DNA of 64,000 nt, from positions 257,296 through 321,295 of the forward strand of contig JBBTVB010000002.1 in assembly GCA_038063455.1 (NCBI GenBank), in the 5' to 3' direction. Below the pieces are notes generated by a model that ran no database searches, was not told where the DNA came from, and saw nothing but the letters and a program-made list of their open reading frames with translations. This document shows positions 6,698 to 32,685 of this stretch, in pieces (the stretch's first letter is position 1; every line of letters begins with the position of its first letter). The DNA comes from Patescibacteria group bacterium (GTDB taxonomy: Bacteria; Patescibacteriota; Patescibacteriia; PEXW01). The translations under genes were made by a program, and so were the position numbers.

Positions 6698-6732
6698 GGA
6701 ACCATCACTAGATTCGGTTTCATGGCAAGCCA
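6695..6732 (+). repeat. CCA-pairing trailer hairpin + TGGCAAGCCA motif (tRNA-Lys copy)
   Basis: CCAGGAACC ... GGTTTCATGG pairs with the encoded CCA. TGGCAAGCCA at 6723-6732. Confidence 0.6.
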
Positions 6733-6787
6733 CGAGAGTGTCTCGCCGTGTTTCCGGTGCAAGGGATTCGAACGGGTGCGACCCATC

Positions 6788-6832
6788 GGGAGCACCCTGG
6801 CCCCGAAGGGGCGAATCCCTCTGCTCCCACCA
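6788..6832 (+). pseudogene. tRNA-Lys-derived minihelix / att-like scar (acceptor 5' strand + last 21 nt of tRNA-Lys)
   Basis: GGGAGCA + 17 nt + CGAATCCCTCTGCTCCCACCA. The last 21 nt (6812-6832) are identical to 6677-6697 of the intact tRNA. Confidence 0.55.
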
Positions 6833-17608: not shown

Positions 17609-18373
17609 TTACGAGAAGCTTCGCTGCTTGCCCACAATCACCTTCAATTTCCGCGGCGCAACTTCCACTGTGGCCGGGGTCTTAATAATCGTCTCGCCGT
17701 CGGACATAATTGGCATGCTCTCGCCGCCGCTGCGGATGGTCAATTTTTTTACCGGAAAAACGCTGGTCCGGGAAAAATTGCGACGGCCAAAGCCGAACAT
17801 ACGCCGCTCTTCCTGCGGGCGCACGATGACATCTAAATACCCGTCTCTAGGGTTCCCCTGCTCGCCGAAGTTGGCAATATCAATCGTCGCTGGCGACAGT
17901 GCCGAAATCTGGAACTTGCTATCGCAATCGATAGTAATACTCTTGCACTCCGGTAAACTGAGTTTGGAAAGGAAGTACCGGTTGTTCACTTTGCCCAAAT
18001 CCAACGTCGCGGTAATTCGGGCGGACAGCACGTCGCAGGCCGCTACGCCGTAAGGAATGCCCAGAGTCATTGCCATTATGGTTTCTTCACCAAGCGGAAT
18101 AATTCCAACTGTCACAGCGGTTTCCGCCAGCGCCGACATTGCGCTATTCAGCATCCGATCTGTGCCAATAAGCACAATGGTTTCCGAATGATTCCGCAAA
18201 GCGTCTTTAATTGCTTCGGGCAGGCTTTTGAGAATCGTCAGCTTCTCAATCCGGCCGCTCATTTCCAATTCAATCAACCGGCTCTCGATTCGGGCGAGTT
18301 CTGCTTCGTATTTCTTATCGTTAATAGCGGCTTCAACAATGTACGTGTACATACTCGCGCTAAACTGCGTCAT
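17609..18373 (-). CDS. DAGK-catalytic-domain-like lipid kinase (YegS/BmrU-like, degenerate motifs)
   Basis: LIGTDRMLN (cf GGDGTLN) and IIPLGEET (cf IIPLGTGN). The ATG overlaps the bactofilin stop (TAATG at 18371-18375). Confidence 0.55.
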   Translation of the reverse strand: MTQFSASMYTYIVEAAINDKKYEAELARIESRLIELEMSGRIEKLTILKSLPEAIKDALRNHSETIVLIGTDRMLNSAMSALAETAVTVGIIPLGEETIMAMTLGIPYGVAACDVLSARITATLDLGKVNNRYFLSKLSLPECKSITIDCDSKFQISALSPATIDIANFGEQGNPRDGYLDVIVRPQEERRMFGFGRRNFSRTSVFPVKKLTIRSGGESMPIMSDGETIIKTPATVEVAPRKLKVIVGKQRSFS

Positions 18374-18741
18374 TAATTTTCTTCCTGTTGTTGCGGTGCG
18401 CCAGACATCGTACACTTGCCGTTCAGAATTGCACCGGGCTCCACCGAGAGCATGCTGGTTTCCACATTGCCGTGCAGCTTTGCGCCGGCTTTAAGAATGA
18501 GCTTACCAGTCGCTTTAATGTTACCGATCAGCTCACCAGCGAGCAGCACGTCAACCGCTTCTACGTTTGCTTTCACTTTGGCACTAACACCAATGGTAAC
18601 GTTGTGCTTAGTTTTCAAGGTTCCTTGCAACTGCCCTTCGACAATAACGTTCCCCTCACCCACGAAGTTACCTTCAACCTTCACCGCACCGCCAATAACT
18701 GTGTCGCCTTGCTTTGTGCTTGCTGCGTCGCCTTTGAACAT
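18373..18741 (-). CDS. Bactofilin (DUF583) cytoskeletal protein
   Basis: Repetitive beta-helix pattern VIGGAVKVEGNFVGEGNVIVEGQLQGTL...VLLAGELIGNIKA...KLHGNV. Start set at MFKGD (18741). Confidence 0.8.
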   Translation of the reverse strand: MFKGDAASTKQGDTVIGGAVKVEGNFVGEGNVIVEGQLQGTLKTKHNVTIGVSAKVKANVEAVDVLLAGELIGNIKATGKLILKAGAKLHGNVETSMLSVEPGAILNGKCTMSGAPQQQEEN

Positions 18742-18864
18742 AGAGTAAATATGTAAATCTGGAGCACTTGGATTGTACGTCGACGGGCGCAGGGGGTCAA
18801 AGCGTTGTCTGGATGCTGATTGTTCGCTACACTCAGCGAGCAATTATTATCCAGAAAAATCCGT

Positions 18865-19038
18865 ATGAAAAACGAAGCGCCTCAGGCAAACCCGATTAAG
18901 AAAGACCTACGAAGGTTGGCGATTTTGCTAGTCGGGATTGCAATAGTACTTGCGGGAATACGGTACTTGTCGCTAAAAACAACAATTGTAAGCGATATAT
19001 CACATAATTTATATAAAGCGACACTTGAAAATAGCTAA
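18865..19038 (+). CDS. Hypothetical small membrane protein (57 aa from ATG; track ORF starts at TTG 18820)
   Basis: Single TM segment LAILLVGIAIVLAGI. No SD seen. Confidence 0.3.
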   Translation: MKNEAPQANPIKKDLRRLAILLVGIAIVLAGIRYLSLKTTIVSDISHNLYKATLENS

Positions 19039-19050
19039 TATAAGCAACTT

Positions 19051-19125
19051 GCCCCTGTAGCTCAATGGATAGAGCAGTCCCGTCCTAAGGGAAAGATGGG
19101 GGTTCGATTCCCTCTTGGGGCACCA
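19051..19125 (+). tRNA. tRNA-Arg (anticodon CCT), CCA encoded
   Basis: Manual cloverleaf with anticodon loop GTCCTAA and T arm GGGGG-TTCGATT-CCCTC. One T-T mismatch in the acceptor stem. Confidence 0.85.
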
Positions 19126-19160
19126 TGAACCACTCGCACGCTCGGGTTCATGGCGGGCCA
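19123..19160 (+). repeat. CCA-pairing trailer hairpin + TGGCGGGCCA (tRNA-Arg-CCT copy)
   Basis: CCATGAACC (19123-19131) pairs perfectly with GGTTCATGG (19145-19153). TGGCGGGCCA at 19151-19160. Confidence 0.65.
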
Positions 19161-19258
19161 CACATAACACTCGCTTTAATGAAGTTCTGCTCTAATAATG
19201 AGTTAGTGGTTCATGCGCTGTACCGAAACGAAGTGACTGGTACATGGCGGCTATAGAT

Positions 19259-19274
19259 TGTTCCACGTGGAACA
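19259..19274. promoter_or_regulatory. parS centromere-like site TGTTCCACGTGGAACA (copy 1)
   Basis: Perfect 16-bp palindrome matching the chromosomal parS consensus TGTTNCACGTGNAACA. Lies 24 nt upstream of tRNA-Ala(CGC). Confidence 0.7.
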
Positions 19275-19298
19275 TATTGAAAATTAGCTAGTATTTAT

Positions 19299-19372
19299 GG
19301 GCCTGTGGTTCAGTGGTAGAACACGGCATTCGCATTGCTGAGACGGGAGTTCGATTCTCCCCAGGTCCACCA
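19299..19372 (+). tRNA. tRNA-Ala (anticodon CGC), CCA encoded
   Basis: Manual cloverleaf with the G3:U70 identity pair and anticodon loop TTCGCAT. Confidence 0.9.
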
Positions 19373-19480
19373 CGCACCAGTCGCCCGCGCTTCGCACGGA
19401 CTCCGGTGCATGGCAAGCCATCAAGCTAAAGTCTTTAATAAGGACAAAGCTGGTGCGTGCCGTGTACCCGAGTTCGTGAA
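19363..19480 (+). repeat. 118-nt perfect direct repeat, copy 1 (tRNA-Ala 3' end + trailer)
   Basis: Identical to 19749-19866 (offset 386), although the two tRNA-Ala bodies differ. Includes the CCA-pairing hairpin (19370-19413) and TGGCAAGCCA (19411-19420). Confidence 0.85.
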
Positions 19481-19632
19481 ACGGACGAGTGGTTCACGGC
19501 GTCTCTAGAGAATTCATGATACGCTCGGGTTCATGGCGAGCCACCTTTCTAAATGGCTCGCGAACTTATATGTAGCGAGTGGTTCATGCGCTGTACCGAA
19601 ACGAAGTGACTGGTACAGGGCACATATCGGAA

Positions 19633-19648
19633 TGTTCCACGTGGAACA
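19633..19648. promoter_or_regulatory. parS centromere-like site TGTTCCACGTGGAACA (copy 2)
   Basis: Second perfect copy, 374 bp from the first and 34 nt upstream of tRNA-Ala(GGC). Confidence 0.7.
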
Positions 19649-19682
19649 TTTGCGAGGAATGGTATAGGATGTTTAACAATAT

Positions 19683-19758
19683 GGGCCTCTAGCTCATCTG
19701 GTAGAGCGCTTCCATGGCATGGAAGAGGTGAGGAGTTCGAGTCTCCTGAGGTCCACCA
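19683..19758 (+). tRNA. tRNA-Ala (anticodon GGC), CCA encoded
   Basis: Manual cloverleaf with G3:U70 and anticodon loop ATGGCAT. Confidence 0.9.
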
Positions 19759-19866
19759 CGCACCAGTCGCCCGCGCTTCGCACGGACTCCGGTGCATGGC
19801 AAGCCATCAAGCTAAAGTCTTTAATAAGGACAAAGCTGGTGCGTGCCGTGTACCCGAGTTCGTGAA
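19749..19866 (+). repeat. 118-nt perfect direct repeat, copy 2
   Basis: Identical to 19363-19480. TGGCAAGCCA at 19797-19806. Confidence 0.85.
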
Positions 19867-20071
19867 GCGGACGAGTGGCTCACGACTTTCGTAATAGCAC
19901 ATCTGGGCTAGGCCCGAGGTCGAACAGAAACCCTAACAAGCATTAAACAGAATTCATCAGTCAGGTACCATACTTTGGAGTTTTTTTACTAGCTAAACAC
20001 GAAAAAATTTGTGGTATGTTTAATTTGATAGATGAACATTGATAATCTAAATTCTACAAACGGGAGATAAT

Positions 20072-28231: not shown

Positions 28232-28624
28232 ATGGATCCGCAAGTATTCCTCAATCCGAACTTCCGCTACGCCGTCGTTGGTGCAACAATAAACGAAGCG
28301 AAATACGGCTACCGTGTGTTGCAGGATTTGCATGGCGCGGGCTGGACAGTGGTGGGCGTGAATCCAAAGTACACCGAGGTGGCGGGCATACCCTGCTTTC
28401 CGAACTTGGGCGCACTACCGTGGAAGCCGGATGTTGTAGTGTCTGTTGTCCCGCCCGAAGTCGGTGATGAGATTTTGACCCAAGCCAAAGCCCTGTCCAT
28501 AACCCGCATGTGGTTCCAGCCCGGCGCCGAGTCGGACAAGATAATGATGCATGCTACTCGTTTGGGCATTACTACCAACGACCCGGGAACATGCATTATG
28601 GTGGCGCGGCGGTTGATGGCCTAA
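28232..28624 (+). CDS. CoA-binding domain protein (YccU/YneT-like)
   Basis: AVVGATINEAKYGYRV...GVNPKY pattern. The last 9 codons lie inside the 27-nt repeat. Confidence 0.8.
   Translation: MDPQVFLNPNFRYAVVGATINEAKYGYRVLQDLHGAGWTVVGVNPKYTEVAGIPCFPNLGALPWKPDVVVSVVPPEVGDEILTQAKALSITRMWFQPGAESDKIMMHATRLGITTNDPGTCIMVARRLMA
28592..28618 (+). repeat. 27-nt perfect direct repeat, copy 1 (flanks purL)
   Basis: TGCATTATGGTGGCGCGGCGGTTGATG, identical to 32659-32685. Confidence 0.9.
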
Positions 28625-32658: not shown

Positions 32659-32685
32659 TGCATTATGGTGGCGCGGCGGTTGATG
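32659..32685 (+). repeat. 27-nt perfect direct repeat, copy 2
   Basis: Identical to 28592-28618. Read in the CoA-binding frame it gives CIMVARRLMQK-stop. Confidence 0.9.

Follow-up and report, generated by a model that had tools for sequence, protein, structure and literature searches.

Two canonical parS-type palindromes within a tRNA-Arg/tRNA-Ala cluster are probable chromosomal centromere sites of a CPR bacterium

ParABS centromeres are textbook biology, and the question raised by this locus is whether two identical 16-bp palindromes lying between tRNA genes are such centromere sites or palindromes with another task. The DNA comes from uncultivated Hainich groundwater Patescibacteria (CPR), labelled 'Patescibacteria group bacterium' at NCBI, and the whole 64-kb stretch analysed is called the window. 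It corresponds to positions ~75,021-139,020 of contig CAYIMS010000003.1 (139,792 bp) in MAG GCA_964364675.1. It is chromosomal housekeeping DNA that encodes RNase Y, ClpP, RbfA, IF-2, bactofilin, a PstB-like ATPase and thioredoxin reductase, as well as glutamate dehydrogenase, PurL, PNPase, NusA, an H+-PPase and trigger factor. The large PurL was unexpected for a CPR genome. Its gene (1280 aa) is flanked by a perfect 27-bp direct repeat, TGCATTATGGTGGCGCGGCGGTTGATG, at 28592-28618 and 32659-32685, which suggests that it was acquired by insertion.

The original prediction had placed two perfect copies of the 16-mer at 19259-19274 and 19633-19648, 374 bp apart from start to start and 24-34 nt upstream of tRNA-Ala genes. 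Exact searching and the ARAGORN and Rfam gene calls agree with this placement. The cluster, first taken as one of tRNA-Ala genes, also holds a tRNA-Arg.

18373-18741, - strand: bactofilin gene (Pfam PF04519), a conserved neighbour of the parS/tRNA cluster
19051-19125, + strand: tRNA-Arg(CCT), the first gene of the cluster (ARAGORN; Rfam 56 bits)
19259-19274, no strand: putative site parS1, exact match to TGTTCCACGTGGAACA, upstream of tRNA-Ala(CGC) with a gap of 24 nt
19299-19372, + strand: tRNA-Ala(CGC) (ARAGORN, Rfam)
19633-19648, no strand: putative site parS2, exact match to TGTTCCACGTGGAACA, upstream of tRNA-Ala(GGC) with a gap of 34 nt
19683-19758, + strand: tRNA-Ala(GGC) (ARAGORN, Rfam)

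Both copies are perfect palindromes that match the parS inverted repeat TGTTNCACGTGNAACA at 16 of 16 positions. Exact and mismatch searches of the 64-kb window found no third site with two or fewer mismatches to TGTTCCACGTGGAACA; 0.02 sites are expected at this threshold in the shuffled window, and base composition predicts ~2e-4 sites per 64-kb window that fit the parS consensus at its 14 specified bases. The two sites are not independent of each other, because repeat analysis places both within a local duplicated unit of ~380 nt that consists of a hairpin element, parS, a tRNA-Ala gene and a 153-nt trailer. Inside this unit the 16-mer is perfectly identical while the adjoining bases have diverged.

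The pan-bacterial parS consensus TGTTNCACGTGAAACA, reportedly described by Livny et al. in 2007 and said to include the B. subtilis Spo0J sites, is matched at all 14 specified positions, and the window sites are clustered and phylogenetically conserved. They differ from the consensus in being the fully symmetric C..G variant; related CPR lineages carry either C..G or T..A, never mixed in the loci seen. TGTTCCACGTGGAACA is also the sequence of the experimentally validated wild-type parS2 and parS3 of P. aeruginosa and of the parS of P. putida, so that the proposed fit to the chromosomal parS consensus holds at every specified position and extends to identity with validated sites of other organisms. 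The likeness to Pseudomonas comprises the identical 16 bp, the small number of high-affinity perfect palindromes and the intergenic location beside promoters that ParB represses. In contrast, Pseudomonas has known parAB genes and sites close to dnaA, no more than ~15 kb from oriC, whereas the window sites lie in a CPR tRNA cluster with no origin or parAB found nearby. On these grounds and those that follow, the two palindromes are probably chromosomal centromere (parS) sites, that is, ParB nucleation sites, of a CPR bacterium.

IF-2 homologues delimit a small clade around the window (72-89% identity), and the next Patescibacteria stand at ~47%. The PstB-like neighbour was dropped as an anchor for comparison in favour of IF-2; its next-best homologue was 59% identical, non-syntenic and from an unrelated organism. 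A 26-residue Anaerotruncus match to the lineage-specific 314-aa neighbour, obtained in the contig collection search, was spurious. Three clade loci (L010, L011 and L012) were fetched via IF-2 (74-85% identical) and thus blind to parS. Each contains exactly two perfect copies of TGTTCCACGTGGAACA, one upstream of each tRNA-Ala, and in each the gene order bactofilin-DAGK-IF-2 is retained, as is the Arg(CCT)-Ala(CGC)-Ala(GGC) cluster. Three more loci of the same clade (L029, L046 and L051) came from a scan for the parS pattern and were hence not blind to it; together with the window, these six make up a seven-species comparison.

With the palindrome as anchor, the 16-mer had a mean pairwise identity of 1.00 among the seven species, against 0.30-0.32 in the 30-nt left flank and 0.39-0.48 in the 30-nt right flank. 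At parS1 the 30-nt flanks are 32-39% identical while the orthologous 16-mer is perfect in all seven species; the parS2 orthologue is likewise conserved in the seven, with 48% clade-wide identity in its right flank. Beyond that, the spacers cannot be aligned: insertions differ from species to species, 5' ends of tRNAs occur as fragments, and one species has a serine-recombinase island. Even the body of tRNA-Ala(CGC) has been swapped for a different variant in two species. A perfect 16-bp island in unalignable DNA indicates a sequence-specific reader, and its perfection at orthologous positions between diverged flanks argues for purifying selection on the 16-mer.

The DNA between the genes of the cluster was resolved into leaders and trailers.

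19123-19250, + strand: type A structured trailer after tRNA-Arg, ending ~8 nt before parS1 (repeat/inverted-repeat analysis)
19275-19298, + strand: A/T-rich leader or promoter-like module TTGAAAAT..GCTAGTAT, abutting parS1 (read from the sequence)
19370-19500, + strand: type B long hairpin trailer after tRNA-Ala(CGC) (153-nt repeat, second copy at 19756-19886)
19510-19623, + strand: partial second copy of the type A element, ending ~10 nt before parS2 (repeats 88-96% identical)
19649-19682, + strand: leader or promoter-like spacer from parS2 to tRNA-Ala(GGC), with a ..AATAAGTGCTARTGTTAGGCAAAATAT module conserved in relatives

A module like TTGAAAAT..GCTAGTAT also precedes tRNA-Arg(CCT), at 19025-19042 and without parS, and in several species an A/T-rich TTGAAAAT..GCTARTAT module starts 2 nt after parS. 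The predicted RNA fold of the type A trailer has an energy of -41.4 kcal/mol (z -1.5), its partial second copy has a z of -2.9, and the type B trailer is very stable (-64.5 kcal/mol, z -6.0). The two 153-nt trailers 3' of the tRNA-Ala genes (19366-19505 and 19752-19886) are 97% identical, with tRNA bodies only 65-75% alike. Rfam returned only tRNAs in the cluster and no match for the type B trailer, a repeat that could be a MITE-like or processing element.

Other features of these tRNA genes and their surroundings were observed. The trailers at 19119-19250, 19500-19623 and 6698-6733 open with a stem formed by the CCA end and GGTTCATGG or GGTGCATGG further 3', after which comes GCRRGCCAY; complementarity extends to a second 3' trailer segment, which covaries between the trailer types. 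The trailer of tRNA-Lys has the same start as those of the cluster, and the final 20 nt of this tRNA (GAATCCCTCTGCTCCCACCA) are duplicated at 6812-6830, ~115 nt 3' of the gene, in what looks like an integration scar. In L010, the leader and trailer of each tRNA-Ala are complementary over 14-23 nt, lengthening the acceptor stem. Orphan tRNA 5' fragments (gggcctgtggtt, gggcctctag) occur upstream of tRNA-Ala genes in L010 (5740-5830) and L012 (2480-2600), each followed by hairpin insertions. A serine-recombinase/HTH island splits tRNA-Arg from the tRNA-Ala genes at 2100-7100 of L012 (also in L013; IF-2 74%), and each full parS of L012 has a three-quarter parS (CACGTGGAACA or CACGTGTAACA) ~55 nt away, framed by GC-rich inverted repeats.

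Scanning 18750-20025 for sigma-70 promoters gave none on the + strand, and no intrinsic terminators were predicted between the tRNAs of the cluster. Manual -35/-10 assignments around parS were ambiguous, and none is claimed. With neither signal between the tRNAs co-transcription is plausible, and the cluster may be transcribed as a unit with parS inside the spacer. The palindromes could then be RNA hairpins of a polycistronic Arg-Ala-Ala precursor that signal processing or termination; strong structure is present in the spacers, and the 16-mer itself can form a 6-bp hairpin of -7.1 kcal/mol. This hairpin is weak, however, with a stability only marginally above that of shuffled sequences (z -2.1), and an RNA signal would be expected to show compensatory variation. 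The sequence is instead invariant in 29 distinct contexts for C..G and 75 for T..A (104 in total) bar one symmetric switch: the listed sites are of the symmetric C..G or T..A variants only, never mixed, and the information content is ~0 bits 3 nt outside the 16-mer in both sets of contexts. Symmetric-only variants fit a homodimer reading two identical half-sites and speak against a hairpin signal in RNA, in which compensatory changes would be tolerated. We consider it highly improbable that the palindromes act as RNA.

Probably minor isoacceptors, the tRNAs of the cluster decode AGG, GCG and GCC, so that the description of their promoters as highly transcribed in the original prediction is an assumption. 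It is not established, given the probable minor isoacceptors, the lack of a predicted sigma-70-type promoter between the tRNAs and a parS-tRNA geometry that varies in relatives. That geometry is not fixed, because parS lies 9 nt before tRNA-Ala in Uhrbacteria and 130-250 nt from the tRNA in two clade species.

Specificity was assessed in 209 kb of protein-anchored loci from 8 genomes, which contained 20 perfect and 2 one-mismatch sites. None of the 22 is more than 1 kb from tRNA-Arg(CCT) or tRNA-Ala(CGC/GGC), so in this DNA the 16-mer is clustered at these tRNAs and not scattered; a uniform scatter around the chromosome had been named as telling against parS. No parS was found at other tRNA clusters, namely those of L060 (Uhrbacteria, Leu/Val/Val) and L063 (Parcubacteria, seven tRNAs), or at the three other tRNAs of the window.

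The same comparisons bear on whether the sites are parts or targets of a small tRNA-associated mobile or recombination element, as attachment sites or inverted repeats. Such an origin would suit a cluster that is a hot spot for small insertions, partial tRNA 5' ends and, in L012, the serine-recombinase island, where each parS lies between inverted repeats that include the three-quarter parS; the duplicated unit of the window also carries hairpin elements. It sits badly with flanks that are unrelated between sites, which leave no larger element travelling along with the 16-mer, with the absence of the 16-mer from other tRNA genes and the rest of the 209 kb of neighbouring DNA, and with a sequence that matches the pan-bacterial parS and not any known att site. 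We therefore regard a mobile element as an extremely unlikely explanation.

The association of parS with these tRNA genes extends beyond the clade. In 'Candidatus Kerfeldbacteria' (L059, L061 and L024; taxon names here are NCBI labels on homologous proteins), parS is kept in the cluster at an IF-2 identity of only 46-47%. The order in L059 (GCA_008633355.1) is parS, tRNA-Arg(CCT), parS, tRNA-Ala(GGC), and that in L061 is parS, tRNA-Arg, two tRNA-Ala(CGC), TGTTCCACGTGGAACG, tRNA-Ala(GGC); in these two loci and in L024 a parS thus lies upstream of tRNA-Arg. L024, L045 and L048, which share this low IF-2 identity, also have the parS/tRNA arrangement beside bactofilin, at GC contents of 0.31 to 0.40. 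The bactofilin gene adjoins the cluster in L009-L012, L024, L029, L045, L046, L048, L051, L059 and L061 (at 8717-9121 in L059, 8738-9139 in L061 and 5717-6058 in L024). The candidate sites are very probably real chromosome-segregation sites, because parS and the same tRNA genes recur in distant CPR lineages.

Bactofilin and PadC form a scaffold of ParABS in Myxococcus xanthus (PMC5703909). The CPR arrangement is similar in that the bactofilin gene lies directly by the parS/tRNA cluster in the window clade, Kerfeldbacteria and other lineages; it differs in that the relation is one of gene adjacency only, with no PadC or ParB found, and that the adjacency is absent in the Uhrbacteria-like lineage.

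Metagenome contigs were scanned for GGGSC..TRGYTCA starts preceded, at 15-45 nt, by a canonical parS. The scan required parS by design and is biased to tRNA-Ala-like 5' ends, so the 45 loci obtained give no frequency of the coupling across CPR. Real tRNA-Ala genes are present in 32 of the 45, and tRNA-Arg(CCT), which was not in the pattern, accompanies parS and tRNA-Ala in ~24 metagenomic loci. Eleven matches from one lineage of GC ~0.57 are not tRNA, the GGGCC being part of a terminator-like hairpin in a common spacer; L040 and L053 (GC 0.60-0.65) are separate matches that are not tRNA either. The GC ~0.57 lineage (L015, L025, L026, L033, L036, L037, L050, L052, L054 and others), apparently from peat or bog, has the order parS, a conserved spacer of 38-41 nt and the terminator-like hairpin. 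In a GC ~0.60 lineage (L016, L019 and L023), parS lies 20-44 nt upstream of tRNA-Ala(TGC), between tRNA-Ile(GAT) and tRNA-Ala(TGC); no rRNA genes were detected near it in the two loci scanned, L019 and L023.

Most of the tRNA-bearing scan loci have the second symmetric variant, TGTTTCACGTGAAACA, arrayed in up to 10 copies over ~800 bp (L035, L028, L044, L047 and L057), and the PolA encoded beside one such array is 77% identical to that of 'Candidatus Uhrbacteria'. In Uhrbacteria GCA_021413945.1 (L062) the order is rpmH-rnpA-yidD, dnaA, dnaN, polA, rpsT, tRNA-Arg(CCT), five parS, tRNA-Ala(CGC), then four perfect and one one-mismatch parS. This array, 9 perfect and 1 one-mismatch copies of TGTTTCACGTGAAACA, lies ~10 kb from dnaA, and L047 has the same arrangement at the same ~10 kb. 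The polA-rpsT-array synteny was found in seven loci with PolA identities of 42-77%. The Uhrbacteria-like arrays (L062 14014-14860, L035 6347-7141) contain 6-10 copies of TGTTTCACGTGAAACA spaced by 40-140 bp, with unrepeated DNA between the sites. From its sequence and position, such an array is predicted to be a classical ori-proximal centromere. Multi-copy ori-proximal parS clusters are established in Myxococcus xanthus (22 sites) and Corynebacterium glutamicum (10 sites; review PMC7022226). The Uhrbacteria-like relatives resemble them in having 6-10 sites in <1 kb, ~10 kb from dnaA. The CPR arrays differ in being far more compact (40-140 bp apart) and in surrounding two tRNA genes, and the window has only two sites.

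The variety of arrangements also bears on whether the palindromes are operators of a dedicated dimeric transcription factor for the tRNA-Ala genes that resemble parS by coincidence. The window sites are directly upstream of the conserved A/T-rich module and the tRNA-Ala genes, the parS2-type gap of 31-34 nt to tRNA-Ala(GGC) recurs in several lineages (L024, L031, L042, L046, L058 and L011), and HxlR and PadR regulators are among the proteins encoded in the window. The position nevertheless varies among loci, from upstream of tRNA-Arg in the three Kerfeldbacteria loci to 9 to 250 nt from tRNA-Ala elsewhere, and as operators the arrays 10 kb from dnaA, with as many as 9 sites 3' of tRNA-Ala, would make no sense. 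Moreover, only 4 of the 65,536 perfect 16-bp palindromes fit the parS consensus, a coincidence of ~6e-5, and we judge an operator function very unlikely. This low coincidence, the invariance of the 16-mer, the unrelated flanks, the variable positions and the ori-proximal arrays together disfavour the operator, RNA and mobile-element explanations, and a centromere remains the preferred reading.

The original prediction had noted that no canonical parAB gene lies in the window, and this was correct. Pfam searches of essentially all window ORFs, together with 10 kb upstream and the fetched clade loci, gave no ParB, ParA or SMC, and tblastn with B. subtilis Spo0J and Soj against all loci gave matches only in the unrelated GC-rich L040 and L053. 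Neither the proteins p283, p315 and p220 beside the Uhrbacteria arrays nor those beside the clade clusters had a ParB-like Pfam or PDB match; the conserved proteins at both places look like Ig-like surface proteins.

With no parA or parB near the sites in any lineage examined, the reader might be a ParB-family paralogue, acting in Noc-like nucleoid occlusion or pure transcriptional silencing, instead of a segregation ParB that partners ParA. Members of the ParB family are known to have taken on other roles, which counts for this possibility, as does the repression by P. aeruginosa ParB of promoters next to intergenic parS (parS3/parS4). The Noc-binding site (NBS) is the palindrome ATTTCCCGGGAAAT; the window sites have instead the CACGTG core and the TGTT/AACA arms of canonical parS, and the ori-proximal multi-copy arrays of Uhrbacteria are typical of centromeres. 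A paralogue as the reader is thus improbable, and a segregation ParB is preferred.

A position close to the origin had also been proposed. Within -29 kb and +45 kb of the sites (the window and 10 kb upstream), we found no dnaA/dnaN, no cluster of DnaA boxes and no GC-skew flip. The window has 16 one-mismatch DnaA boxes against 10 expected, and these are scattered. An oriC within the window was rejected, the boxes being unclustered and the GC skew showing no inversion. Gene orientation flips exactly at the tRNA/parS cluster, from the - strand at 6.6-18.8 kb to mostly the + strand at 19-52.8 kb, and the AT skew changes sign there as well. This pattern is origin-like, but without dnaA, a DnaA-box cluster or a GC-skew flip. 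Proximity to the origin is therefore not established for the window itself; what can be said in its favour is that the equivalent array lies ~10 kb from dnaA in Uhrbacteria-like relatives.

The proposal that the sites are chromosomal parS bound by ParB gains indirect support from their identity to validated parS and their perfect conservation in orthologous clusters inside unconserved DNA. By analogy with known systems, we infer ParB binding, clamp loading, spreading and interplay with ParA/SMC. A ParB, presumably a CTPase clamp of the Spo0J type encoded elsewhere in the genome, would bind each palindrome as a dimer, load, and slide along the adjoining few kb, where the tRNA, bactofilin and pstB-like genes would all be covered. 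The resulting partition complex would be used by ParA and/or SMC for chromosome segregation and organisation. Each tRNA-Ala is directly preceded by the A/T-rich module that parS abuts, so bound ParB may also lower tRNA-Ala transcription, as it does for promoters at the intergenic parS3/parS4 of P. aeruginosa. Condensin/SMC is enriched at tRNA genes in yeast, through TFIIIC-condensin, and at highly transcribed genes in B. subtilis. The co-location of an SMC-loading element with tRNA genes is no more than an analogy. Condensin is recruited by the tRNA transcription machinery in the known cases; in CPR, a canonical parS is simply embedded between tRNA genes.

A broader and much more tentative idea, which we hold to be possible though rather doubtful, is that in a large part of CPR the centromere is evolutionarily locked to tRNA-Arg(CCT) and tRNA-Ala(CGC), with or without tRNA-Ala(GGC), and that this coupling is functional rather than inherited synteny. 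Centromere and tRNA pair would then move together through rearrangements, to a place next to dnaA/polA in Uhrbacteria and, in both Kerfeldbacteria and the window clade, next to bactofilin/IF-2. The link could work through ParB, whose occupancy might control whether these tRNAs are transcribed. Another possibility is that the partition complex is built or anchored with the help of the tRNA transcription unit and its structured spacers, joined in one branch by the adjacent bactofilin.

A parS site is in itself unsurprising, because the sequence is canonical; what stands out is the conserved placing of a centromere within a particular tRNA pair, together with its adjacency to bactofilin in one branch. 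Full-text literature searches covering Patescibacteria, CPR and Saccharibacteria turned up no account of either parS or ParB, and the conserved coupling of parS to tRNA genes appears to be undescribed so far. The present loci are the first evidence we found for conserved parS centromeres in CPR/Patescibacteria. The parS sites around tRNA-Arg(CCT) and tRNA-Ala(CGC) provide a portable centromere landmark in the fragmentary MAGs of these unculturable organisms, which in Uhrbacteria marks the origin region. The unexpectedly deep linkage of a centromere to tRNA genes raises a testable question about ParB versus tRNA transcription in very small genomes.
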